Part shown: piece after piece, positions 2,581-45,452 of the stretch
Layout: each line of letters starts with the position of its first letter
Position numbering within the stretch: the first letter of the stretch is position 1
Source of the DNA: an uncultured Clostridia bacterium
GTDB taxonomy: Bacteria; Bacillota; Clostridia; TANB77; CAG-508
NCBI GenBank assembly: GCA_944388805.1
Contig: CALXKE010000001.1
Location: forward strand, 48,090 to 112,089
Reading direction: 5' to 3'
Length of the DNA stretch: 64,000 nt
The notes under the pieces: generated by a model
What the model saw: only the letters and a program-made list of their open reading frames with translations
The model's database searches: none
Told to the model about the DNA's origin: nothing
Made by a program: the position numbers and the translations under genes

Positions 2581-3594
2581 GTGAGAAAATTGTTAGATGA
2601 TAGAAAAAAGAAAGTGCTACAAGCAATTGTGGAAGAATATATTAATACAGCAGAGCCAGTTAGTTCAAATGCATTAACAACAAATCATGGATTAGATTGC
2701 AGTAGTGCAACCATTCGAAATGAAATGGCAGATTTGGAAAAGGCAGGGTATTTGGATAAAACACATACTTCAAGTGGTAGAGTACCTTCTGAAAAAGGTT
2801 ATCGATATTATGTAGATGAACTGTTAAAAGATGATGATATTAGTCTTGAGGAAATCAAATATATTAGTGATAAATTAGAAACAAAGGTAAATGAAATTGA
2901 AGATTTAACAAAGATTGCGGCAAATACGATATCAGAAGTAACACATTATACAACAGTATCTATAGGCCCAAAAGCAAACAGTCAGATTATAGAAGAAATC
3001 AAATTTGTATTATTAGGCTCTAGAATGATGATGGCAGTTATCTTGACAGATAGTGGATTAGTAAAAGAAACCATTATTAAATTTGATGAAGATGTGACAG
3101 AAAAACAAGTAGAAACTATTAATTATATGTTTAATAAAAAATTAAAAGGACAGCCAATTGAAACAATTGATAGACCTTTAGAAGATTATTTGTATGATGA
3201 AATGACATATAGTGTCAATGTGATTAAGCCAATTATTGAGCAAATTAAAAAAGTATTAGAAGAGGAAAATGTATATTTAGAGGGCGCTAATAAGTCATTT
3301 GATTTACCAGAATTTAATAGCTTGGAAGTTGCTAAAAACTTTGTTAATATATTGGATACAAAAGAATTGGTAACAGATATGTTAGATTCAGGAATTGCAG
3401 ATGATATTCATGTATATATCGGAGAAGAAAATCAGAAAGAAGAGTTGAAAGATTTTAGCGTTGTTACTTTTAAGCATAAGGTAAATGGAAAGGATTTAGG
3501 AACGATTGGGATTATTGGACCTAAAAGAATGGATTATTCAAAAGTGATTTCTGTTATGAAATATATTAATAAGAAATTAAAAGAAATAGAGTAA
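2581..3594 (+). CDS. hrcA: heat-inducible transcription repressor HrcA (true start may be TTG at 2590)
   Basis: LLDDRKKKVLQAIVEEYINTAEPVSS... typical HrcA N-terminus; first gene of the hrcA-grpE-dnaK-dnaJ order; CIRCE upstream. Confidence 0.85.
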   Translation: MRKLLDDRKKKVLQAIVEEYINTAEPVSSNALTTNHGLDCSSATIRNEMADLEKAGYLDKTHTSSGRVPSEKGYRYYVDELLKDDDISLEEIKYISDKLETKVNEIEDLTKIAANTISEVTHYTTVSIGPKANSQIIEEIKFVLLGSRMMMAVILTDSGLVKETIIKFDEDVTEKQVETINYMFNKKLKGQPIETIDRPLEDYLYDEMTYSVNVIKPIIEQIKKVLEEENVYLEGANKSFDLPEFNSLEVAKNFVNILDTKELVTDMLDSGIADDIHVYIGEENQKEELKDFSVVTFKHKVNGKDLGTIGIIGPKRMDYSKVISVMKYINKKLKEIE

Positions 3595-3795
3595 ATTTGA
3601 GAAATAATCATCATTTGGCGTTGTTGACCTTCATTTTTAATTTATAGCTAAAGCTTACTGATGCTGTAACAAGCAGAGCTTTAACAGCCTCAGCATCAAC
3701 GTACAAATAGTACGCCTCATAAATTAAAAACTCGGTCGCCTAGCCAAATAACGATTCTTTTCCAAATTAGAAATTTGAGAAAGGTAGGTTAAAGA

Positions 3796-4308
3796 ATGGC
3801 AGAGAAAAAAGAAGAGTTAGAAAATGACGTAAAAAAAGAAGAAAAAGTAGAAAATAAAAAAGAAAAAAAGGAGCAAGAGATTGTACCAAAATCAGAATAT
3901 GACGAATTAGATGATAGATATAAAAGAATTTTAGCAGAATTTGAGAACTTTAAAAAGAGAAGTGCAAAAGAAAGAGAAAGTTTATATAATTCTATCTTAT
4001 CAGATGTAGTAGCAGTTATGCTTCCTATATTAGATAACTTGGAAAATGCTGCTAAAGTTGAAACAAAAGATGAAGAGTACAAAAAAGGAATTGAATTGGT
4101 ATTGAAACAATTTCAAGATACATTAAAAGCAAAAGGTGTAGAAGAAATTAAAACTGTAGGAGAAACTTTTGATCCAGAATTACATGAGGCAGTAAGTAGT
4201 GTACAAGATGATACTAAAGGTGAAAAAGAAATTGTTCAAGAATATAGAAAAGGATATAAAATTGGTTCAAAGGTTATTAGACATTCTATGGTAGTGGTAG
4301 CCAACTAA
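3796..4308 (+). CDS. grpE: nucleotide exchange factor GrpE
   Basis: 170 aa; acidic and K-rich N-terminus, YKRILAEFENFKKR motif, operon context. Confidence 0.85.
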   Translation: MAEKKEELENDVKKEEKVENKKEKKEQEIVPKSEYDELDDRYKRILAEFENFKKRSAKERESLYNSILSDVVAVMLPILDNLENAAKVETKDEEYKKGIELVLKQFQDTLKAKGVEEIKTVGETFDPELHEAVSSVQDDTKGEKEIVQEYRKGYKIGSKVIRHSMVVVAN

Positions 4309-4344
4309 AACAATTACAAGCGGCATCTTACTGCGTTAAACTTC

Positions 4345-4605
4345 ATAAAAATTTTTTCGATGTACAAAGCGTACTATCTCAAAAATTTTTACTTGTTTGC
4401 CTTGTAATATACCACTTCTAATTGTTTTAGAAATAAATGAATGAAAAGCAGCAATCTTCACATTTTTACAAATTTGTTCAAACCTCGATGTACCATAAGT
4501 ACACCTTCGGCTTGACCAATTTTATAAAAATGCAAATCTTACTACTTTTCATCCATTTAATCAGAAAAAAGAAAGTAGCAATCTTCACATTTTTACAAAT
4601 TATAG
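4345..4605. repeat. Family-3 repeat region: two degenerate copies of the TGTAC-N4-5-GTACA core (4355-4378, 4476-4520) plus a local 28-nt direct repeat agcaatcttcacatttttacaaatt (4447-4475 and 4576-4603)
   Basis: Direct comparison with the tandem copies at 47027-47285: tcaaacctcgatgtacNNNNgtacaccttcggcttga. Confidence 0.6.
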
Positions 4606-4620
4606 AAATAGGAGTTAAGA

Positions 4621-5207
4621 TGAAACAAGAAATAGAAAAGAAATATGCTGTAAACTATCTCCCAGAAGATTTAAACATAACAAATATATTGGATATAGAA
4701 CAAGCATTTATCTATAAAGATGCAAAAACAGTGATTAGAATTCGAAAAATACAAAATAAAAAGGATAAGCATATAGAATATATTTATACAGTTAAAACAA
4801 AAGGAGACATAGCGTATCATCAAGATTCTACTGTTGCAAATGCATATGAAATAGAAAGTTATCTTCAGGAAGAAGAGTTTAATGAACTTATAAAAAATAG
4901 AATTAGTAGCATAATAAGAAAGACGAGAATGATTATACCAATAGAAAATAACTTAAAAGTAGAAATGGACATATATAAAGATTACTTACAAGACTTAATA
5001 ACAGCAGAAGTAGAATTTCCAAGTGAAGATATAGCAAATGCTTTCCAAAAGCCAGAATGGCTGGGTGAAGAAATGCAATATAAAGAATTATCTAATTGGA
5101 AATTATCCAATATGACAAAAGAAGAGTGGATGAAAAAACTAACAAAAGAAATGATAGAAAACAATCGAAAAATCATTCTTGATTTAAAAAAGAATGAAAA
5201 AATATGA
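4621..5207 (+). CDS. CYTH-domain protein (triphosphate tunnel metalloenzyme family)
   Basis: MKQEIEKKY... carries the N-terminal ExExK signature of CYTH; RBS ggagttaag upstream. The ORF-track start at 4437 is probably an over-extension into the repeat region. Confidence 0.55.
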
Positions 5208-5231
5208 AAGGTATTAATTTTAAAAATATAA

Positions 5232-7178
<1,947 letters not shown>

Positions 7179-9331: not shown

Positions 9332-9819
9332 TGATATTTGTAATGTTAGGAACACAAAACAATTCATTTCAAAGACTTTTAGAAGAAATAGATACATTAA
9401 TTAGCAAAAATGTAATTAATGAAGAAGTAGTGGTACAGGCGGGATATACCCAGTATCAACCAAAAAACGAAAAAATGAAGATAATAGATTTTATGCCAAG
9501 AGAAGAATTAGATACATTTGAAGAAAAAGCGAATTTCATTATCACACATGGGGGAGTAGGTTCTATTATTACTTCACTTGAAAAAGGAAAAAAAGTAATT
9601 GCCGTGCCAAGATTACATCAATATGGAGAACATGTGAATAATCATCAAACAGAAATTGTAGAAAAGTTTCATAAAGGAGGAAACATTATTGGACTGCAAT
9701 CTGTAGAAGAATTAGAAGAGGCAATCAAGAAGGTACAAGATTTTGAACCAAAACCATATATAGAAAATAATCATAAAATGTTAAAGTTAATAGAAAACTT
9801 TATAGATAATATACAATAA
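9331..9819 (+). CDS. Alg13-like glycosyltransferase catalytic subunit (GT28 C-terminal domain; EpsE/Cps14F-like)
   Basis: MIFVMLGTQNNSFQRLL...ITHGGVGSI; start ATG at 9331 overlaps the stop of the previous gene (taATG). Confidence 0.55.
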   Translation: MIFVMLGTQNNSFQRLLEEIDTLISKNVINEEVVVQAGYTQYQPKNEKMKIIDFMPREELDTFEEKANFIITHGGVGSIITSLEKGKKVIAVPRLHQYGEHVNNHQTEIVEKFHKGGNIIGLQSVEELEEAIKKVQDFEPKPYIENNHKMLKLIENFIDNIQ

Positions 9820-9846
9820 AATGACGGTAAAGAAAGAGGAAAAAAA

Positions 9847-11835
9847 TTGAAAGAAAAAATAAAAGAAAATCAAAAGATAAAAGAAAAGATAAAGGAGAAG
9901 TTAGAAAAATTAAAAAAGAAAGAAACAGATGAAAAGGAAATGAAAATAACCAAGGCAAAAATAAAAGAGGTATCCAATCGATTTTTTAATTCGATAGGAT
10001 TTCCAATTTTAATAGGAATTTTATTACTATTAAAAACAATCTTTTTTTACCTAAATACTATATCTATTCGAGAAACGATAGATAAAGATACAATCTTAGG
10101 TACAATTGCATTTTTAGCAACAGTGATTTGTATGATATGTGCATTACCCAATAGGGGAAGAACGATTACCACAATAGTAGTAGATATATTATTAAGTATC
10201 ATATTATTTGCTGATAATGTATATCATACCTATTCAAGTTCTGTTTTGTCTGTGGCACAAATCATGAATCTCCAATATGGAGAAGAAATTATGGATACTT
10301 TGCCAATGCTAATAAAAGCAAAAGAAATTTTATATTTCTTAGATATTTTATTGATGATAGTATTACTATGTGCAAAAGTTTTAAAAATTTATAAAAAAGA
10401 AAAAACAGATTGGAAAAAGAAGATAGCAAAAGTTTTAGTGGGCGTAATTGCAATTGTATTGTTTTTAAAAATAGATGTGGATTTTATTGAAAAAACAAAA
10501 GAAGATCCATTTAATAAAGATATGCAGGTAAAGAAGAGTACAATTTATGGATATCATATATCAGATATAGAAAATACAATTAATATAAAAAAGCAAGCAA
10601 AATATACAACGAAAGAAACACTTATAGCTGATTATAATGAACTTAAAGAAGACTATGATGAAAAATATGGAAAGACTAATTATGATTTACAAGGAATTGC
10701 AAAAGGAAAAAATGTTATCATTTTACAATTAGAATCTATTCAAAACTTTGTCATTAATAAAGAAATTAATGGAAAAGAGATTACACCAAACTTAAATAAG
10801 TTTATCAATGATAATATTGAAATATCAAATATGTTTATGCAAAGTTATTCTTCAACAGCTGATTCAGAATTTTCGACAGTAACATCTTTATATCCAATGG
10901 AAAATGGCATGTCATATAGCCGATATTATACAAATGCGTATGATAACATATTTACGATGTTTGCTAATGAGGGATATACGACATCTTATATGCATGGAAA
11001 TTATGGGTTTTTCTGGAATAGAGAAAATGTATACCACACCTTTGGAGTAGAAAATATTGAGTTAAAAGATTCTTTTGCAGATACATCAGAAAATATTATG
11101 GGATATTTATCAGATGAATTACTATATACACAAGCAGTAGAGAAATTAAAAAAATATGATATGCCATTTGTTTCCTATATTGTTTCAGCATCTTCACACA
11201 CATCATTTAGTTTGGAGGGATTAGAAGATAGGAGCAAAGTGAATATTGATGTTGGAAAATATAAAGATACATTTTTTGGAAACTATTTAGAAGCTGTTAA
11301 TTATGCAGATTATGCTTTTGGAGTATTGATAGATAAATTAAAAGAAGCCAATTTATATGATGATACAGTAATTCTTTTATTTGGTGATCATAATGGAATG
11401 GATATGTATAATGAAGAAATGTTAGACTTTTTGCAAGGAACAGATTCAGAATTAACAGATACAGATATAAAATTAAATTATATCAGGGTAGCTTGTGGAA
11501 TGAAAATTCCAGGAATAGAAAATATAAAAATAGAAAAACCAGTCAGCAAATTAGACATAAAACCAACATTTGCTTATTTAATAGATGGAGATGCTGGATT
11601 TAGCTTAGGAACTAATATGTTTGCAAGAAAAGATTTTATATGTCTAAATAATGAAAGAATTGTTACAAGTCGATATTATTTTGATGAAAAATGGTATCGA
11701 ATCAAGGACGGAGAAGAAATAAACTTAGAAGAACTACCACAAGACGAAAGAGAATTATTGGAAGACTATTACGAGAAAATGAGAAGAGAATTAGATATAT
11801 CTATTTCAATTAGCATTAACAATTTGTTGAAATAG
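9847..11835 (+). CDS. LtaS-like phosphoglycerol transferase / sulfatase-family membrane protein
   Basis: N-terminal TM segments followed by an extracellular alkaline-phosphatase-superfamily domain (SYSSTADSEFS...). Unusual KEKIKE-repeat N-terminus; the true start may be internal. Confidence 0.6.
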   Translation: MKEKIKENQKIKEKIKEKLEKLKKKETDEKEMKITKAKIKEVSNRFFNSIGFPILIGILLLLKTIFFYLNTISIRETIDKDTILGTIAFLATVICMICALPNRGRTITTIVVDILLSIILFADNVYHTYSSSVLSVAQIMNLQYGEEIMDTLPMLIKAKEILYFLDILLMIVLLCAKVLKIYKKEKTDWKKKIAKVLVGVIAIVLFLKIDVDFIEKTKEDPFNKDMQVKKSTIYGYHISDIENTINIKKQAKYTTKETLIADYNELKEDYDEKYGKTNYDLQGIAKGKNVIILQLESIQNFVINKEINGKEITPNLNKFINDNIEISNMFMQSYSSTADSEFSTVTSLYPMENGMSYSRYYTNAYDNIFTMFANEGYTTSYMHGNYGFFWNRENVYHTFGVENIELKDSFADTSENIMGYLSDELLYTQAVEKLKKYDMPFVSYIVSASSHTSFSLEGLEDRSKVNIDVGKYKDTFFGNYLEAVNYADYAFGVLIDKLKEANLYDDTVILLFGDHNGMDMYNEEMLDFLQGTDSELTDTDIKLNYIRVACGMKIPGIENIKIEKPVSKLDIKPTFAYLIDGDAGFSLGTNMFARKDFICLNNERIVTSRYYFDEKWYRIKDGEEINLEELPQDERELLEDYYEKMRRELDISISISINNLLK

Positions 11836-28521: not shown

Positions 28522-28914
28522 ATGGAAAATTCAGATAATTCAAATAATAAAAATTTTATCAATATATTAAAGGGATTGGGAATTGCTTTTATCATCACTT
28601 TTATTTTTTTATTGATTTTATCAATCGTATTAACTTATACAAATGTTTCTGAAAATATGATTAATCCAACCATCATTATTATTACCGCACTTAGTATATT
28701 AATAGGAAGTAGTATTAGCAATATAAAAATCAAAAAGAATGGATTAATAAATGGAGGCATTATAGGTGGTGTATATATTATCTTACTATATCTGTTTTCT
28801 AGTATATTTAGTATGCAATTTTCTTTAAACTTGCAATCTGTTATTATGATTATCACAGGAATTGTTTTTGGAATTTTAGGAGGGATTATAGGTGTTAATG
28901 TATCCTCTAAGTAA
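28522..28914 (+). CDS. small 4-TM membrane protein
   Basis: Hydrophobicity pattern only. Confidence 0.4.
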   Translation: MENSDNSNNKNFINILKGLGIAFIITFIFLLILSIVLTYTNVSENMINPTIIIITALSILIGSSISNIKIKKNGLINGGIIGGVYIILLYLFSSIFSMQFSLNLQSVIMIITGIVFGILGGIIGVNVSSK

Positions 28915-29097: not shown

Positions 29098-30447
29098 TTA
29101 TCCAATATAATCTGTATAAATGACACGATTCCAGTAATTCATTAAATTCTGTTTTTCTGATTTTGGAACTATATTGATTCTAATAGCAGAAAAAGGCTTA
29201 TCATGAGAATAGGTTGTTTCTTCACCATCAGAAGAGGCTCTTAACCAACCAACAGACGGAACATAAATTTGATAAACAATAGAATATTCTTCACAATTTT
29301 TTAATTGAAAAGCAATTCCAGAAAGACCATATAAATTTTGTTTTGCAATTTCTTGAGGAATAGGCTTTTTCTGGTTCATACAACTATTGCCAGCTTGATT
29401 ATGTCCATAGCCACCTAACTGCAGAGCAATCTTATTAAGAAAACGTATAGCATTTTGTCCAGTAATATCATACCAAGTTGTGGGACTAGGGTTGTATCCA
29501 TAACTATAGAGAATTTCAGAAGAGTTGCAGAGATCAGTTGTATTTTCACCCCAGTAGGTATAATCAAAAACTCTTGCTTGTAATATAGATTTATCGATGT
29601 CACCATCTAGATAAGTAATGATTCTTTCAGATTTTTTAGAAGAGGCATCAATAATAGTTTGTTTACCAGAAATTTGTCCACTATGATTAAACTCATTAAT
29701 AGGATAACCACTATTATGAGTGGCATAATACAGCATAATGTTTTTTGCATGTTGTATATTAACAAAAACTTCTGATGTATTTCCTGCATAATCTGTTATA
29801 GTGATTGGATAAGAAATAGGGGAAGGAAATATTTTAGATAAAGAAGAATGGGAATCATAGAAATCCCAACCATTTATTGGTCTTAAATTTTCATTAGATT
29901 GAATCATATATTGTGATTTATCATTTTCAATAGATAATTCTTTACAGGTAGAAGTAGGAGAAATGTTATCAATATAAATACCGGTTTCAAATTTTTGGGA
30001 ATCATTTTTTAAACCAAAAGCATCTTCAATGATGCCTTCTGGAAAAACAATACTTAAATTCCCATTGCCTGTTAAATTAGATAATATCAAATCATAAAGC
30101 ATTTCACCGTTGTTATTAGAAAGTAAAGATAATTTTATAGATGGTTTCATAGTTGTATCATTAACTAAAATTTGTATGTTATCATGAGTAAAGTGATTGA
30201 TAGTAACATTTTTTTCTGTAACTTTAATCCTTAGAGTTACAAGATGTGTAGAATTTGCATATTTTTCATATCCTGTATTTGTATTGGAAATACTTAAAAC
30301 TTCTATTACCGGTTTTTTATCAATTTGAATTTTTGTGGCAATGAAGGATTCATTAAAAACATATTTTGAAAAACTAAATTGACAATAAAATGGAATGAGA
30401 AATAGGAAGATGAAAAATAAAAAGATAATAATAAATTTTTTGCTCAA
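29098..30447 (-). CDS. secreted protein (449 aa) with SipW-cognate-like signal peptide
   Basis: N-terminus MSKKFIIIFLFFIFLFLIPFYCQFSFSKYVFNES; the FSKY motif is shared with the TasA-like gene at 31085. Confidence 0.5.
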   Translation of the reverse strand: MSKKFIIIFLFFIFLFLIPFYCQFSFSKYVFNESFIATKIQIDKKPVIEVLSISNTNTGYEKYANSTHLVTLRIKVTEKNVTINHFTHDNIQILVNDTTMKPSIKLSLLSNNNGEMLYDLILSNLTGNGNLSIVFPEGIIEDAFGLKNDSQKFETGIYIDNISPTSTCKELSIENDKSQYMIQSNENLRPINGWDFYDSHSSLSKIFPSPISYPITITDYAGNTSEVFVNIQHAKNIMLYYATHNSGYPINEFNHSGQISGKQTIIDASSKKSERIITYLDGDIDKSILQARVFDYTYWGENTTDLCNSSEILYSYGYNPSPTTWYDITGQNAIRFLNKIALQLGGYGHNQAGNSCMNQKKPIPQEIAKQNLYGLSGIAFQLKNCEEYSIVYQIYVPSVGWLRASSDGEETTYSHDKPFSAIRINIVPKSEKQNLMNYWNRVIYTDYIG

Positions 30448-30656
30448 AAAATCCCTCCTTATTTTATTGAATATTTGTGAAATACGTGAAAATATTTCAT
30501 TTTTATTTTTGGATGATTATTGGGATTTTGAAATTAACGAAATAAAATATTTGAATATGAATGTATACATTATATAAAGAAATATGGAAAATGTCAATAA
30601 ATACAAGATTTTAGTTTCAGAATTTGTAACTATTCAGTGGTATAAAATTTCTAATT

Positions 30657-30838
30657 ACGAGTTCTTGTATATTTATTTTTCATAAATTCCTCGGTTCAAT
30701 ACGTGCTCTAGCCTTTCTAACTACAAAAGAAACGAGCCTCTCGCTATTCCCGCTTCCTCATTTCTTTTATAGTAAGAAAGGCTACAATCACTCCAATCAC
30801 ATTCATCATTTATGAAAAATAAATATACAAGAACTCGT
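30657..30838. repeat. IR-1: 31-bp perfect inverted repeat flanking a 120-bp GC-enriched spacer
   Basis: acgagttcttgtatatttatttttcataaat (30657-30687) and its exact reverse complement (30808-30838); the spacer has nested 9-bp inverted repeats agcctttct/agaaaggct. Confidence 0.9.
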
Positions 30839-30951: not shown

Positions 30952-30980
30952 TTGACAATGGCAAAATATGGAATTATAAT
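30952..30980 (+). promoter_or_regulatory. consensus sigma-A promoter TTGACA-N17-TATAAT for the TasA-like cluster
   Basis: ttgaca at 30952-57, tataat at 30975-80. Confidence 0.6.
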
Positions 30981-31084: not shown

Positions 31085-31669
31085 TTGAGTAAAAAGAAAA
31101 CGGCTTTGCTAGTAATATGTTTGCTACTAGCGATTATATTATCTTTTATGATTGGTAAAACTTTTTCTAAATACATATCAGAGGTAAAAGGAACAGGAAC
31201 AGCAGAAATAGCAAATTGGGTGTTTAAAGTAAATGGAAAAGAAGATGTTATTCAAAATGTAAATTTATTATCTACATATGATAATGAGACTTTAATTAAT
31301 AATAAGGTAGCTCCAGGGACAAGTGGAAGTTTTAATATTATCGTAGATGCAACAGGTTCTGATGTGGGAATAGACTATGCAATTCAATTCCTAAATGAAA
31401 GTGAAAAACCACAAAACCTAATATTTACCTATGATGATAAACAATATACAACTATACAAGATTTAGAAGAGGATTTATCAGGAACCATAAATGCAAATGA
31501 TGAAAATAAATCAAGAACCATTACAATTAATTGGGAATGGCAATATGAAACTGGTGAAGATGAAAACGAAATTAATCAAAATGATATAATTGACACAAAC
31601 AATGCAAAACAACTAGAAAATTATACATTTGATATATATGTTACAGGAACACAAGTTATGCCACAATAA
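31085..31669 (+). CDS. TasA/CalY (camelysin)-like secreted protein
   Basis: TTG start after RBS aaaggagg. Signal peptide then TFSKYISEVKGTGTAEIANW (cf. CalY GGGTFAFFSDKEVSNNTFAAGTLDL), mid VAPGTSGSF, C-terminal TITINWEWQYE (cf. CalY LNLEWTFNA). Similarity judged from memory. Confidence 0.45.
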   Translation: MSKKKTALLVICLLLAIILSFMIGKTFSKYISEVKGTGTAEIANWVFKVNGKEDVIQNVNLLSTYDNETLINNKVAPGTSGSFNIIVDATGSDVGIDYAIQFLNESEKPQNLIFTYDDKQYTTIQDLEEDLSGTINANDENKSRTITINWEWQYETGEDENEINQNDIIDTNNAKQLENYTFDIYVTGTQVMPQ

Positions 31670-31888
31670 TTGATGAAATATGCGAAAATAAAAATATGAT
31701 GAATATGATAACCCCTAGAAAATATATAAATTAAAATTTTAAACAATCAATTTTAGAAATCAAAAATTAAAAATTAGAATCCACATTCAATCCTCTAAAT
31801 ATAAATTATAGAGAAATATGTACAAACAAAAGAGCAAGAATAAAAAGTAAATGATAAAATATTTAGCAGAATACATAATCTTTGTGAT

Positions 31889-31917
31889 TCATTAAGAGGA
31901 CAAGTTCCTCTTAATGA
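31889..31917 (+). other. 12-bp perfect stem-loop between TasA-like genes
   Basis: tcattaagagga-caagt-tcctcttaatga; no U-tract follows. Confidence 0.7.
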
Positions 31918-31927
31918 ATATATAAAT

Positions 31928-32506
31928 ATGGAGAGGAGAAAAGATTTGAATTTAAACTTTATAAAAAAGCCAAAAAAACTAACATTAAAAACTCTAAAAA
32001 AAGAGCAAAAAAAGTATAAAGATAAGAAACAAGAAATTCTTATCATTTGTATGATATTGATAATTGGAATTACATTTTTCTCAGGCGTGAGTGTCGGAAA
32101 AGCCGTATATAATAGTCATATAAAAAATGATACACAAATTGCAAAACCAGTTTTAGAGGTGGAAAAAGGTTCAGAAATGATTATTACAGAAGATAATCAA
32201 AAAGGTGAATATACATTTATAGTAAAAAATTATAATGAAGTAGCAGAAATATCACAAGTAGATTTAACATATTATATTGAAATCTTAGAAAAAGATTTAA
32301 ATGAGTCTATACAATATCAATTATATAAAGATAATGAGCTAATAGAATTGAAAGAAAATAAAACAGAAACAATGACATTTCATAAAGATGTAAAGGAAGA
32401 ACAACACTATACACTAAAAGTAACTTATGATGATAGTAAAAATACAATAGAAGATATCATGCAAGAGATACAAATAAAAGTACATTCAGAACAGTTAAAG
32501 ATATAG
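31928..32506 (+). CDS. membrane-anchored or secreted protein of the TasA-like cluster (possible start TTG 31946)
   Basis: Basic N-terminus, one TM/signal helix, beta-rich ectodomain. Confidence 0.4.
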   Translation: MERRKDLNLNFIKKPKKLTLKTLKKEQKKYKDKKQEILIICMILIIGITFFSGVSVGKAVYNSHIKNDTQIAKPVLEVEKGSEMIITEDNQKGEYTFIVKNYNEVAEISQVDLTYYIEILEKDLNESIQYQLYKDNELIELKENKTETMTFHKDVKEEQHYTLKVTYDDSKNTIEDIMQEIQIKVHSEQLKI

Positions 32507-32514
32507 GTGTAAAA

Positions 32515-33129
32515 ATGCAAAAAAGAAAAAAACGATATATTATCATAATGATCATTTTAGTGTGTATTATATTTTTTATGATAAATTTTATAAGATATGA
32601 TTTTTTACAAGAAGATTTATTATTTTTTCAATTTTTAAGTTCTAGAAATCAATCCAAAGATATTTCTAATGTAAGAAAGCAAGTCGTAGAAAACGATGAA
32701 ACAAATATAAATGTAAAAAACATTTTTTTTGATGTACAGTATCAGAAAACAACAATAAAAGCATTAAATCTAACAGAAACACTAGATAATAAAACATTAG
32801 TATATGAAAAAATAGCACCAGGGACAAGTGGTGAATTTGAAATTTTATTAAATGCTAACCAGAATATGAATTATAAAATTGCATTTGAAAGTGAAAATGA
32901 AAAACCAACTAATTTACAATTTTATACGACAAATAAGGAAAAGAGATATGCCACTTTAGAAAATTTAGGAGAAATATTAACAGGTAAAATTCTAAGAAAT
33001 GAAGAAAAAATAATACCTGTTTATTGGGAATGGAAATATGAAACAAGTCAAGGGCAGAATAAGCAAGATACATTAGAAGCAAAGAAAATTAGAGAATATC
33101 ATTTTTTGATATATGTACAAGGGTATTAG
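32515..33129 (+). CDS. TasA/CalY-like secreted protein, paralog of the gene at 31085
   Basis: IAPGTSGEFEILLNA...IPVYWEWKYETSQG parallels VAPGTSGSFNIIVDA...ITINWEWQYETGED. Confidence 0.45.
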   Translation: MQKRKKRYIIIMIILVCIIFFMINFIRYDFLQEDLLFFQFLSSRNQSKDISNVRKQVVENDETNINVKNIFFDVQYQKTTIKALNLTETLDNKTLVYEKIAPGTSGEFEILLNANQNMNYKIAFESENEKPTNLQFYTTNKEKRYATLENLGEILTGKILRNEEKIIPVYWEWKYETSQGQNKQDTLEAKKIREYHFLIYVQGY

Positions 33130-33130
33130 T

Positions 33131-33323
33131 TTTTGTTCAGTGTCCAGTTCCTCGAAGGTATATATATTATATTTTTCGCTATCCCAACACTTTACATATT
33201 CTAGCAAAATCAGCTCCCACGGGACTGTCGCTGATTTAATAAGAGTATGTAGCGTGTCGGTCCCCACGAAACTCGCTTAAAATATAATATATATACCTTC
33301 GAGGAATTGGACACTGAACAGAA
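33131..33323. repeat. IR-2: 41-bp inverted repeat (1 mismatch) flanking a 103-bp spacer
   Basis: gttcagtgtccagttcctcgaaggtatatatattatatttt (33135-33175) versus 33279-33319; the spacer contains sub-hairpins (atcagc...gctgat). Confidence 0.9.
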
Positions 33324-33365
33324 ATGGATATTTGATAAGTATTCTAATAAAATCTATCAAAATAC

Positions 33366-38860: not shown

Positions 38861-39571
38861 TTGCAATTATTCGGTTTATTTGTAGGACAATTGGTTGATT
38901 GGGCGAATAAACGATTACCAGAATATAAAAAGTTTTTATCATTAGATATATTTAAAGAATATAAAAGAAAATTCAAACCAAACTATATATTGATGTTATT
39001 AACATCTGCAATTTATGTAACATTGGTTTATACATTGGGAATAAAAGATACATTAATTGCCAATTTAGATTTAATAAAATTCTTGATTTTAACACCAATG
39101 TTGTTATCTGCATTTGTTATAGATTACAAATATCAAATCATACCAAATAGATTGAATCTAACCATATTTGAAATTGGGTTAATATTTGCTTTCATATATG
39201 GATTATCCAATGTAGCAATTACTTTAAATATGTTATTAGGAATGTTAGCTGGTGCAGGAATTTTTTTAGTTATCACATTAGTTGGTGGATTATTTTATGG
39301 AAAAGAAGCCATGGGATTTGGTGATGTTAAATTAATGGGAGCATTAGGATTATTTTTTGGATTATCTAATATTGTGGTAATCACATTAATATCTTTCTTA
39401 ATAGGTGCCATATTGAGTATAGGACTATTAATTACAAAAGTAAAGAAAACAGATGAATATATACCTTTTGGACCATTTATCGTAATTGCAACATTTATTA
39501 GTATGTATATACCATTTGAAACAATAAAATTTGTATTAATGAAGATATTTACACTAGGAATGTCTCATTGA
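38861..39571 (+). CDS. A24-family prepilin peptidase; N-terminus probably frameshifted (see findings)
   Basis: GFGDVKLMGALGLFFG catalytic-Asp region, polytopic. A strong RBS aaggaga+ATG at 38821 opens a different frame that closes at 38895. Stop (MSH*) comes from a family-2 repeat. Confidence 0.7.
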   Translation: MQLFGLFVGQLVDWANKRLPEYKKFLSLDIFKEYKRKFKPNYILMLLTSAIYVTLVYTLGIKDTLIANLDLIKFLILTPMLLSAFVIDYKYQIIPNRLNLTIFEIGLIFAFIYGLSNVAITLNMLLGMLAGAGIFLVITLVGGLFYGKEAMGFGDVKLMGALGLFFGLSNIVVITLISFLIGAILSIGLLITKVKKTDEYIPFGPFIVIATFISMYIPFETIKFVLMKIFTLGMSH

Positions 39572-42087: not shown

Positions 42088-42116
42088 TTGCCATTATGAA
42101 TTCTTTATCATATAAT
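42088..42116 (+). promoter_or_regulatory. promoter TTGCCA-N17-TATAAT
   Basis: ttgcca at 42088-93, tataat at 42111-16, immediately after the terminator. Confidence 0.55.
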
Positions 42117-42152
42117 AGAATTAGTAATTTAAGAGAAAAATGGGGAATACAT

Positions 42153-43877
42153 ATGAAAAGAGAAGATTTAAGAAAAAATATACTTCCAGTAACCTTATAC
42201 AATACAAATTATGATGGAGAAATAAAAAGAGGGGAATTAGACACAAAGGATTATTTATATATACCAGCGCAAAAAGACTATGTGGATATGAATAAAGACG
42301 ATATTAGAAAAGCGGGGTATTCTCGTTCAGCGCTTATACAAGATATTTCAGAAGGAAAATATCAAGCTAAGTCAAGTGAAAGCACAGATTTTTTAGATAG
42401 CTATCTAGAGAAAACAATTAAAGGAAAACAATGTCACGAATATTATCTTCGCTCGGTAAGTAACGGATTAATAAGAAAAGCAACAACATCGGGATATACA
42501 GAGAGTGCATTAAAAAATGAAAAAAGTCATGTAGGTGTACGTGTTTCATTATATTATGAAATTCCAGAAAAAACAGAAGAATTATCAATTAGAACAGTAA
42601 GAGATAGATTTGGAAAAATAAGATATCATACCTTACAGATAGGAGAATATTCTGGAGCAGAAGTTGTTGGGAAAGGAGTAGAATTTTTAGAGAAATTATA
42701 TAATCATGGAGATGTAAAAGAAGGGTTAAAAGCAACCGGTAGATGGTATTCTTCAAATGGTCTAGATCAGGATATATGGGATGAGAGAGGATATCAAGGA
42801 AAACATAGCCCAGAATTTGAATGTAATGGTGTACGATTTGTTAGAACAATGACAGATCCAGCAACAAATCCAAATCAATATACAGAAGGAAGTACAGAGT
42901 TAAAGCAAGGAAGAGTTAGATGGCAAAGAGTAGATCCTGTATCGTTTATTATCTTAAATTGGGATAGCCTACCAAAAGATATTAATCCCGATGGATTTGG
43001 AACGCAAAAATATTTTAAATTAATATCAGAAGATATTTTAATTTCGAATATGCCATTTTATCCTAAAACAAGTGATAAAAATAGCGAATTATGGCAAAAT
43101 AGTACCATTAGAGGATTTTTAAATGGAATAGATGTAAGAAATATAACAGAAAATGGGAATCCAGAATATGGTGCAAGTAATGGGGGAGATTTTCGAGGAG
43201 AATGTAACTTCTTAAATGAAACATTTAATTTATCAAGAGAACCAATAGTAGAATATACTATACCAGAAAGTGAAGAGGCAATACCAGATGATGCTTTTAA
43301 CGGTTGTATAACACTAGAAAAATTAAATCTGCATAATGGTATTGAAAGCATTGGGAAAAGAGCATTTGATGGAATTGATTTTCGATATGCCTATAAAACA
43401 CCAACAGGTGAGATTATGTTTTCTAAAGAATTATTAAAAGATATAGACGAATCGGCAAAGGTTATAGAAATAGAAAAATTGAGAAAAGCTTTACCAGGAC
43501 TAGATTATAATATATTTTTAAAAGATAATCAGATGGATGATATTATAAAACTGTCTGAAACATTAATTAAGCACCATTTTTCAATACCATATATATATGG
43601 TATGAAATTATTAGAAAATGGACTTGCAAGTTTATTTTGTGAAAAAAGTGTTTTTAAATTTTTTAAAAAAGAGAATCCTAATATTACCGAAATATTATCG
43701 GAATATCCAGAAGAGGAGAGATTAGACTTTTTTAAATTTGCAACAGCACTAGGTTGTTTTTCAAAAGAAAAAATATTAGATGAAAATGGAAACGAGACAC
43801 AAACAATGGTGGCACAAAAGGCATCTTCAGCTTTAGCTTCTATGTTGAAGAAAAATGCGAATATGGCATTACGGTAA
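42153..43877 (+). pseudogene. large hypothetical protein, N-terminal part; contains a BspA-type leucine-rich repeat; probably one gene with 43855-44985 that is split by a 1-nt indel in an A5 run
   Basis: ATG 42153 after ggggaa. Motifs HEYYLRS...GVRVSLYY (DUF6273-like as recalled) and IPDDAFNGCITLEKLNLHNGIESIGKRAFDG. The frame switches to +1 at gaagaaaaatgcg (43843-43856). Confidence 0.5.
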
Positions 43878-44985
43878 TTATCATGAAAAATTTGACTCTT
43901 TACCTGTTGAAGATGGGTGTATAAGTCAAGAATTCTTAAAATTTATAACTGAAATGGATGGCAAAAAAGATTTTAAAAATATCGAATTACTTTTTCATTT
44001 AGAAAGAGAATATCCAGGAATAATGGTAAAAACGATGTCTGATTTTCATAAGGCTAAATCATTTAAAAAAACCTTAGATGAAAATGGAGAACCAATTGTT
44101 TTATCTTGGGAAGAGACTCTAAAGAAATTTTATGTGAGTGAAAAATATAAAGGGGTAACAATGCAAAATGCAGATATAGCTGAATTATATGAGCAAAGAG
44201 GACTATCCCAAGAAGCTTTTGATGAAACTAGAGAATTACGATCAAAACAAATAGCAGATAATATTTCACCACATATATTAGGAAAAAAAATGGAGGAAAA
44301 TACAATACTAGAGAGCATAGAAGAAATTAAAAATCGTACAGCAGAAGAAATCATAAATGGAAAAGAAATGGTTGAAGAATTATGGGATAAGCAATTTACG
44401 TATGAATGGTTAGATAAATATAATCCACATAATCCCATTATTGGTTTGGATTGTAGTTGTTGTGCAACCATAATTAGTAAGTATTATGGAAAAGAAATAG
44501 CCAAAAAAAGTATGATTGCACCAGATGTACAAAATCTTGTTATTAGAGATGCAAAAGGAAAAATTATTTCAAAAGGAACTATGTATATGAATAAAGAAAA
44601 AGGTTATGCTGTTTTTAATGATTTTGAATTAAATAAAGAGTATAGAAAACATGAAGTAAAAAAAGCAGTAGAACCATATGGAGGAAGATATACAGTAGAT
44701 CCAGAATCAAAAGATGAACAACAAAGAGATTTAATATTTAAAGCTTACCAAAGGGGGATAAAGGCCTTTATAGAAGAATATGATAAGCAAAATCCAGAAA
44801 ATCCATTACAACAGGTAAATGTGGGAATGGGATATAATAGGTTGAAAAGACAGGTAGAACAATTTAAAAAAGCAAGTCAAAATTTAACAGTGCCAGTAGA
44901 ATACTCATTTGAAGATGCAAAAGAGGAACAATATATTCTTTATAAAAGAGAAGGAACAGAACCAAAGAAAGGGGAGATACGATGA
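43855..44985 (+). pseudogene. C-terminal part of the same large hypothetical protein (as annotated, or a separate 376-aa ORF without a clear RBS)
   Basis: The open frame starts right after a TGA at about 43848; no SD before ATG 43855; removing one A joins the two frames. Confidence 0.45.
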
Positions 44986-45452
44986 TGATGACGTTAACCC
45001 AAACAAAACTTACAGGACTGACAATGGAGTTAGATTTAAAAGTAAGAGAATATAATATGCTGTGTGAAAAATTAGAAACATTAAAAGCGAAAAAAATCAA
45101 TCCTAATGATATGACATTATTACCTTTAAAGGAAAAATTCGAAAATAATTATCTTGAAATTGTAGAGATTAATAGACAAATAAAAGAACTAAAAAAGAAG
45201 ATAGAATCTGAAAAAAACAATTTAAAAGTAAAATCAGAAGAAGAAATGTTTAAAAAAGCAAATAATAAGAACGATTTAGAAACTTTAGAATTCCCAGAAG
45301 TTTCAAAAATTCTAGAAGATTCAGAATTATCAGAAACGCTTGAAATTCCAGAAACTATAAATAATAAGGAGAGTATTTTGCCAATCCTTCCAAATAAAAG
45401 AAATTGGTTTGAAAAAATCATAGAAAAAATAAAAAATATATTTAAACATTAA
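44982..45452 (+). CDS. coiled-coil protein (156 aa), translationally coupled (ATGATGATGA overlap)
   Basis: Heptad-rich, K/E-rich sequence. Confidence 0.45.
   Translation: MMMTLTQTKLTGLTMELDLKVREYNMLCEKLETLKAKKINPNDMTLLPLKEKFENNYLEIVEINRQIKELKKKIESEKNNLKVKSEEEMFKKANNKNDLETLEFPEVSKILEDSELSETLEIPETINNKESILPILPNKRNWFEKIIEKIKNIFKH

Follow-up and report, generated by a model that had tools for sequence, protein, structure and literature searches.

The 64-kb stretch of DNA analyzed here (the window) comes from an uncultured Clostridia bacterium and carries four genes, designated p1 to p4, whose products are putative subunits of a secreted surface fibre. Among the protein scaffolds of Gram-positive biofilms, TasA-type fibres are understood best, and sequence models catch only a small part of the superfamily to which they belong. 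An earlier note on this DNA had described p1 and p3 as paralogs with p2 between them and p4 in divergent orientation, a layout that is present in the sequence, and had read the set as a TasA/camelysin module lacking its signal peptidase. The locus is flanked by a BPL-family gene and a DUF3792 gene (p0) on one side and by tRNA-Gln and lysS on the other, a setting that is syntenic across related species. It comprises the following features:

28522..28914, + strand: p0, small four-helix membrane protein of DUF3792/TIGR04086 (Pfam E = 1.5e-24, TIGR04086 E = 2.7e-25)
29098..30447, - strand: p4, open reading frame (ORF) of 449 amino acids (aa), candidate tip, adhesin or cap subunit
30569..30597, - strand: promoter facing p4, TTGACA-17-TATAAT, 12/12 match to the sigma-A-type consensus
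30952..30980, + strand: promoter of p1, TTGACA-17-TATAAT, 12/12 match to the sigma-A-type consensus
31085..31669, + strand: p1, 194 aa, TTG start, putative major subunit
31887..31919, + strand: p1-p2 stem-loop with perfect 14-bp arms and a 5-nt loop
31946..32506, + strand: p2, putative small subunit, 186 aa from the TTG at 31946 (192 aa from the ATG at 31928)
32515..33129, + strand: p3, 204 aa, paralog of p1

The locus was compared with 28 related loci from GTDB species representatives, all of them metagenome-assembled genomes (MAGs) labelled as uncultured Clostridia, Eubacteriales or Clostridium and, where the source is stated, derived from chicken or Hadza human gut samples. Metagenome contigs that carry the exact p1 protein were also found. 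The p1-p2-p3-p4 module is kept in three divergent lineages, and in the two further ones (L034-36 and L054) the four genes form one co-oriented operon. The DUF3792 gene p0 adjoins the module in two contexts that are otherwise not syntenic, those of the window lineage and of L034-36, but lies about 5 kb off in L054 and is absent from the mobile-element contexts of the family; it has therefore been rejected as an obligatory component, and its membership in the module is uncertain.

The N-terminal cassette and the p1/p3 family

The p1 and p3 proteins are 37% identical (E = 3e-31) and have the blocks APGTSG.F and W.W.YET in common, which bears out their description as paralogs. The p1 family amounts to 968 clusters at 90% identity and 2,624 cluster representatives at 50% identity (E <= 1e-3), and its members, wherever the source gives a name, are called 'hypothetical protein'. 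No Pfam or NCBIfam model was matched by any of p1 to p4, that of TapA/YqxM (TIGR04087) included, so that TapA is indeed lacking next to the paralogs, as had been noted; p2 is a paralog of p1 instead. Residues P77, G78, G81, W152 and D170 are invariant in 105 diverse members of the family. The ratio of nonsynonymous to synonymous substitution rates (dN/dS) for p1 is 0.06-0.27, with synonymous divergence up to about 0.9; p1 is under purifying selection.

All four proteins open with one homologous N-terminal cassette. Its K-rich n-region is followed by a hydrophobic helix some 18 residues long, then by the junction T-[FY]-[AS]↓K-[YF] (the arrow marks a known or presumed cut) and by a conserved first strand, [VI]-A-K-[WP]-x-[FL]-x-V. 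Among the 105 diverse members the junction motif is T-[FY]-[AS]-K-[YF], and the family pattern reads G-x-T-[FY]-[AS]-K-[YF]-x-[ST]...G-x-G-[TS]-A-x-[VI]-A-K-W-x-F-x-V after the K-rich n-region and an h-region of ~18 residues. In p1 the K-rich n-region and the hydrophobic helix (residues 3-26) lead to the junction T26-F-S↓K29-Y, a flexible segment (29-41), the strand IANWVFKV and then a beta-sandwich with two helices. The FSKY junction that the earlier note had pointed out in p1 and p4 is found in both proteins (TFSKYISEV, p1 residues 26-34; FSFSKYVF, p4 residues 24-31). Signal peptidase I (SPase I) requires small residues at -1 and -3, and such residues occupy both positions of the family junction. 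In the hhalign register T-W-A↓A-F of TasA stands opposite T-F-S↓K-Y of p1 (S28↓K29), and the mature N-terminus of TasA is A28, as seen in 8AUR. There is no lipobox, since no conserved Cys occurs in or after the h-region (a Cys at p1 position 12 is present in only 6 of the 105 members), and the prepilin motif G↓F-T-L-x-E is absent from p1-p4, in which the hydrophobic helix precedes the junction and N_methyl is not matched.

The start of p2 most likely lies at TTG 31946, which follows a strong ribosome-binding site (GGAGAGGAG) and has also been chosen by gene callers on related contigs. A long, K-rich N-terminus is followed in p2 by the hydrophobic helix, the junction S-V-G↓K-A-V-Y, the strand IAKPVLEV and a beta-sandwich of about 130 residues. 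The profile of p2 orthologues aligned with the p1/p3 profile over 114 columns (hhalign probability 96.7%, E = 4e-10), spanning the signal, the junction, the first strand (IAKPVLEV versus VAKW.F.V) and core strands. By this profile comparison p2 is a remote paralog of p1 and p3; the anchored protein of 192 aa that had been reported between these two is thus present, as a relative of its neighbours and probably with 186 aa.

The cassette is modified in p3: about 20 additional amphipathic residues are inserted behind the hydrophobic helix, and the junction is degenerate (QSKD). The insert recurs in the p3 orthologues of L029, L031, L034 and L054, from which the AKY motif is likewise missing. The p4 profile matches the p1-family cassette over its N-terminal 41 columns only (hhalign probability 89%, E = 2.3e-6). 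In this protein the signal/anchor helix, the FSKY junction and the first strand are followed by two tandem immunoglobulin (Ig)-like domains (residues ~47-230) and a beta-rich C-terminal domain. Homologues of p4 form about 290 clusters, none with a Pfam domain. The C-terminal domain bears a by-eye likeness to clostridial ChW repeats, an assignment that was rejected as Pfam gives it no support.

An AlphaFold2 model of p1 was built from the 105-sequence alignment and compared by Foldseek with 350,542 PDB chains. The model has a mean predicted local distance difference test score (pLDDT) of 86.6; segment 29-41 is disordered in it and the sandwich has about nine strands. The sole match at E <= 1e-3 was the TasA fibre 8aur_A (E = 3.8e-4, Foldseek probability 0.99), and it was followed by FimG, the PapG pilin domain, CS17 and CfaB (E = 0.01-0.09) and by the archaeal bundling pilus 7ueg (E = 0.08), all of which, the TasA fibre included, are donor-strand-complemented subunits. 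The comparison with TasA that the earlier note had proposed therefore put TasA at the top, at a TM-score of only 0.35; scores of 0.35 or less for the p1 matches weigh against a firm assignment to the TasA fold, and they may be low partly because the p1 model keeps its signal helix and TasA is in the fibre conformation. The fold evidence linking p1 to TasA is suggestive rather than decisive. The p4 model (pLDDT 91.2) matched only generic tandem Ig chains in the PDB.

Signal peptidases of related loci and expression signals

All retrieved loci were scanned for the S26 catalytic motifs, and more distant family members were sampled in addition. A TIGR02228/SipW-type peptidase, a signal peptidase I of the archaeal or endoplasmic reticulum type, has been found in or beside family modules in five of nine independent contexts, namely L029 (two copies), L031, L033, L037 and L052/53. 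L029 and L031 belong to the window lineage itself, as its two most divergent species. L029 has a second, paralogous module (3393-6285) about 4 kb upstream of p1-p3, with genes for SipW (209 aa), a p1-like protein (198 aa, 'STYAKY'), a paralog (199 aa), SipW (196 aa) and a p2-like protein, and in L031 the SipW gene is located directly between p1 and p2. The gene order is p2-like, p1-like, SipW, p1-like in L052/53 and 957-aa p1 fusion, p1, SipW, p2-like in the conjugative-element locus L037. On TIGR02228 (cutoff 51.85) these peptidases reach 82-106 bits; NF046067, 'signal peptidase I SipW', is their next-best match or the best one that carries a name. Such gene neighbourhoods support, at the level of the family, the intuition that signals of the SipW type are involved, and the window locus is a peptidase-less version. 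The L031 locus itself (9525-10510) may be decaying or mis-assembled: its p1 orthologue ends early (...KIDTRRCTKN), in an overlap with the beginning of the SipW gene inserted there, and p2 is called only as a 93-aa fragment.

The consensus promoter claimed for p1 is indeed there at 30952-30980, about 100 nt upstream of the p1 start. Of 24 related species, 23 have the identical 12/12 promoter equally far from p1, the distant L034 lineage included. The promoter facing p4 gives a 5' untranslated region of about 115 nt. Taken together, the conservation of the promoter and the dN/dS values point to p1 being a strongly, vegetatively expressed structural protein.

The arms of the p1-p2 hairpin (31887-31900 and 31906-31919) are located just upstream of the ribosome-binding site of p2, and the 61 nt around it fold at -21 kcal/mol (z = -6.3 versus shuffles). 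All species of the window lineage have a strong hairpin between p1 and p2, with at least eight different arm sequences among them, and compensatory double changes were seen at 9 of the 14 consensus pairs, with few pairs broken (15-sequence alignment); no hairpin was found where the p1-p2 spacer is short (L034, L054). Plausibly the hairpin stabilises the 3' end of the p1 transcript, marks a processing site in it or acts as a weak attenuator; it may also be a palindromic operator, for which symmetric covariation would look the same. The 12-bp attenuating hairpin of the earlier note is accordingly real, with arms of 14 bp, conserved and covarying, and its function as an attenuator is a guess. In an Rfam scan of the whole window only four tRNAs were found, and the hairpin and two long inverted-repeat elements matched no RNA family.

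The first of these elements (30657-30838) lies between the divergent promoters and consists of 31-nt perfect inverted repeats around a relatively GC-rich core of 120 bp, which contains an inner imperfect palindrome of 28 nt. In the sister strain L005 the core is exactly inverted (117/120 against the reverse complement, 25/120 direct) between collinear flanks; the element is in forward orientation in 3/3 contigs with the window p1 allele and inverted in 11/11 with a 99%-identical allele. A fast phase-variation switch was considered and downgraded because the orientation is fixed per lineage; this idea is further weakened by both consensus promoters lying outside the element and facing away from it, and by similar elements being located elsewhere, or absent, in related species. 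The element looks like one fixed inversion or a miniature inverted-repeat transposable element (MITE)-like element. The second element (33130-33324; 46-nt arms, 96% complementary, 103-nt core) begins at the base after the p3 stop codon and ends before tRNA-Gln. It has the same orientation in all contigs seen, and in the sister species L029 and L050 its site is taken by the gene of a 588-686-aa protein. At the downstream position L023 has an element with repeats like those of the upstream one, and unrelated long inverted-repeat elements are found at either position in L006, L009 and L018, which suggests that these elements are mobile MITE-like hairpins.

A putative surface fibre and competing explanations

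We consider it somewhat more probable than the contrary that p1-p4 are subunits of a secreted, TasA-superfamily-like surface fibre from a yet-unnamed family. This explanation is based on the paralogy, the shared cassette, the TasA fold match, the association with SipW in five of nine contexts and the cleavage register, and also on the conserved module, the conserved promoter, the dN/dS values and the hairpin covariation. The family itself is new, unannotated, SipW-associated and TasA-like, with at least 2,600 clusters, and it probably forms a multi-subunit fibre, for which cleavage and polymerisation are predicted.

In the proposed mechanism p1-p4 would be exported by Sec and the signal removed between a small residue and Lys ([AS]↓K; S28↓K29 in p1). 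In relatives the cut would be made by the locus-encoded SipW-type peptidase, and here by a SipW-type peptidase or a general SPase I whose gene lies outside the window. To judge from the TasA fold match, the disorder of segment 29-41 and the cassette common to all subunits, the freed flexible segment and first strand of p1 could serve as a donor strand completing the next subunit, as in TasA. The p1 protein would then be the abundant, polymerising major subunit and p2 and p3 minor subunits; p3, because it lacks the junction motif and has an extra linker, may stay uncleaved as the membrane-anchored base. As p4 has the cassette and no acceptor domain, it would be a strand-donating cap or adhesin at one end. 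The stem-loop might set the excess of p1 over p2 and p3 by stabilising the p1 3' end or by partial termination; in pap operons an intercistronic hairpin sets the major-to-minor ratio. The most complete version of this proposal, a large family of SipW-processed donor-strand fibres in gut Clostridia and on conjugative elements, with four subunit classes that share one cassette, an invariant, perfect promoter that would place the fibre among the most abundant structures of the cell surface, hairpin-set subunit ratios and a peptidase-less locus here, is tentative, and we hold it with rather less than even confidence.

Several results weigh against the fibre explanation. The S26 motif scan found no signal peptidase in the window, where the best tblastn hit with five SipW-type queries had E = 0.38, which confirms the absence of SipW already remarked upon; about 25 sister species likewise have no signal peptidase within 10 kb of the locus, and four of the nine contexts (the window lineage, L034-36, L054/55 and L038/39) are without the peptidase. 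PF12389 was matched neither by p1-p4 (E <= 1) nor by any of the 105 diverse relatives (E <= 0.01), and TIGR04088, the model of the SipW-cognate N-terminal signal, neither by p1-p4 (NCBIfam; E <= 1 for p1, p3 and p4) nor by the 105 relatives or the SipW-adjacent paralogs of L029. Sequence searches of the PDB with p1, with an 8-sequence profile and with the 105-sequence profile returned only non-significant de-novo Ig designs, or nothing. For direct comparison a TasA profile of 55 sequences was built from 120 collected homologues, PF12389 being present in all 120, and the B. subtilis TasA reference sequence was checked against 8AUR and 5OF1. The p1-family profile aligned with the 55-sequence profile by hhalign over 32 columns covering the signal peptide and junction only (probability 8%, non-significant), and with TasA alone over the signal peptide and junction only (probability 0.7%). 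There is, moreover, no U-tract beside the hairpin on either strand, for which reason it is not a canonical intrinsic terminator. Judged by sequence, p1-p4 are not members of the TasA/camelysin family; the membership in PF12389 and the TIGR04088 signal that the earlier note had assumed have to be given up. As a functional analogy the comparison with TasA is supported, by the fold match, by the SipW-type genes in five of the nine contexts and by the hhalign register of the cleavage site.

The main rival to the fibre model holds that p1-p4 are uncleaved, N-terminally anchored (type II membrane) surface proteins of an envelope-associated complex or coat, with the junction as a juxtamembrane interaction motif. 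The missing peptidase in the window and in ~25 sister loci would fit such proteins, as would the N-terminal helix, which is long and confidently modelled in p1 and p4 (pLDDT 90-96), the recurrence of the DUF3792 membrane protein as a neighbour and the lack of a junction motif in p3. The repeated occurrence of a SipW-type peptidase inside modules of the same family is, however, hard to explain without cleavage, the junction has its small residues at -1 and -3, and the disordered p1 segment 29-41 is like the donor segment of TasA/BsaA monomer models (bioRxiv 10.1101/2024.11.04.621531), so that uncleaved anchors appear unlikely to us, if worth serious attention. It is still harder to credit pseudopilus-assisted secretion, with p1-p4 as substrates or partners of an apparatus resembling a type IV pilus, of the kind suggested by the type IV pilin-dependent secretion reported for C. 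perfringens Bsa proteins (bioRxiv 10.1101/2024.11.04.621531). Sister modules do end in a 549-686-aa protein with a prepilin-like N-terminus (weak N_methyl E = 0.003), and an A24 prepilin peptidase is encoded 6 kb downstream in the window, but p1-p4 themselves have no G↓F-T-L-x-E motif and carry the hydrophobic helix before the junction, the pilin-like gene is absent from the window, and the A24 gene belongs to a housekeeping stretch that is syntenic whatever the module content.

A spore-coat or endospore-appendage function is an improbable explanation as well. TasA was first described as CotN, its homologues are often annotated as spore coat-associated, and endospore appendage (ENA) fibres are widespread in Firmicutes. 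Appendages of the F-ENA type have been found in Clostridia (PMC11844507). The p1 promoter is, however, of the perfect and conserved vegetative sigma-A type and not of a sporulation-sigma type, which makes the suggested spore-coat role unlikely, and family members occur on conjugative elements too; F-ENA appendages in particular were rejected, as their head-neck beta-barrel architecture differs (PMC11844507) and none was among the fold matches. Least probable is that p1-p4 are bona fide TasA/camelysin proteins with TIGR04088 signals. TasA as the best fold match and a junction resembling TFAFFSD speak for this idea, which is contradicted by the HMM searches described above, negative even at E <= 0.01-1, and by the lack of mature-domain homology to the 55-sequence TasA profile.

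Large prepilin-like proteins at the module end were observed in L029 (12205-14265), L034 (13442-15091) and L050 (8832-10598), with an N-terminus such as KKNNSG↓ITLISLVITIIIL. The A24 type IV prepilin peptidase of the window is encoded at 38861-39571 (Pfam E = 1e-20), and no pilin gene was recognised in the window.

The p1-p4 module may be compared with several known fibre systems. With B. subtilis tapA-sipW-tasA and B. cereus TasA/CalY it has in common a secreted ~20-kDa beta-sandwich subunit with a cleavable signal (predicted here) and a flexible N-terminal stretch, a similar junction (T-W-A↓A-F in TasA, T-F-S↓K-Y in p1), a dedicated endoplasmic reticulum-type signal peptidase in the locus (here in relatives) and a major with accessory subunits; the TasA fibre is also the structure that the p1 model matches best. 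It differs in that mature-domain homology is undetected by HMM and profile-profile comparison, in the residues after the cut (K-[YF] in the p1 family, x-F-x-D in TasA; no TIGR04088 match) and in having neither TapA nor SipW in the window, with four subunit classes built on one N-terminal cassette. The sipW-bsaA-bsaB-bsaC system of C. perfringens is also clostridial, with several remote TasA-like paralogs per operon, a SipW-type peptidase (here in relatives), a proposed donor-strand polymer and possible links to type IV pilus-like genes, whereas the window module lacks sipW and a BsaC-like von Willebrand A protein. Several highly divergent paralogs per operon are common in TasA-like systems, and 2,172 BsaA-like proteins have been listed (bioRxiv 10.1101/2024.11.04.621531). 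TasA-superfamily loci in general have been described as combining a jelly-roll core, donor-strand complementation, a co-located TIGR02228 SPase I and minor, tip or anchor components (bioRxiv 10.64898/2026.01.04.697558). The archaeal and bacterial filaments of this superfamily (AbpA bundling pili, AbpX, Tafi, Saci_0406 threads) follow the same locus logic of major, minor/tip and anchor proteins with a TIGR02228 peptidase; AbpA (7ueg) is among the p1 fold matches, but weakly (E = 0.08), and the taxonomic range is different (here gut Clostridia). Chaperone-usher pilins (FimG, PapG pilin domain, CfaB, CS17) resemble the proposed subunits in an Ig-like fold completed by the N-terminal strand of a neighbour and in an N-terminal extension common to all subunit classes, tip adhesin included, but they belong to Gram-negative systems that depend on a chaperone in the periplasm and an usher in the outer membrane, both of which are lacking here, and the fold matches are weak (E = 0.01-0.09).

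Donor-strand fibres of the TasA superfamily with a dedicated SPase I are already known and are now being extended to many divergent families. New here are a large family without a sequence model, its own junction motif, the four-subunit module and a locus that is peptidase-less across a whole lineage. The module suggests that a separate family, undetected by current annotation, is present in abundant uncultured gut Clostridia and on some of their conjugative elements, with a locus logic like that of TasA systems (major and minor subunits, a cap or adhesin and, in many relatives, a SipW-type peptidase). The conserved consensus promoter implies a highly expressed surface structure, which could serve aggregation, attachment to mucus or host, or mating-pair formation. 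The motif T-[FY]-[AS]↓K-[YF] could seed a new HMM and define a candidate class of SipW-type substrates.

Mobile-element relatives and other observations in the window

Members of the family have also been found in mobile-element surroundings. In L037 (1523-6260) the 957-aa protein with an N-terminal p1 domain, next to p1, SipW and p2-like genes, is located near PrgI, VirD4-like and group II intron genes, and in L038 (10001-11608) and L039 (6292-7899) a 535-aa family fusion lies near sortase, SpaA-domain, HipA and Fic genes. Such locations on conjugative or mobile elements would be in keeping with a function in mating-pair adhesion.

The window has a GC content of about 28-30% and carries, among others, the housekeeping genes hrcA-grpE-dnaK-dnaJ, ruvB, polA, mreB, radA, lysS, tsaD, efp and polC. 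At ~61625-61731 polC appears to be split by a frameshift into ORFs of 1368 and 235 aa (...FDELIRIS / GLSHGTDVWLGNAQ..., which runs on in another frame); as polC is an essential gene and the genome a MAG, the break probably stems from faulty assembly or sequencing. Between the efp-region genes and an M23 peptidase gene there is a set of three co-oriented genes (42096-45452), the products of which have 593 aa (BspA-type LRR_5 repeat), 376 aa and 156 aa (no Pfam match).

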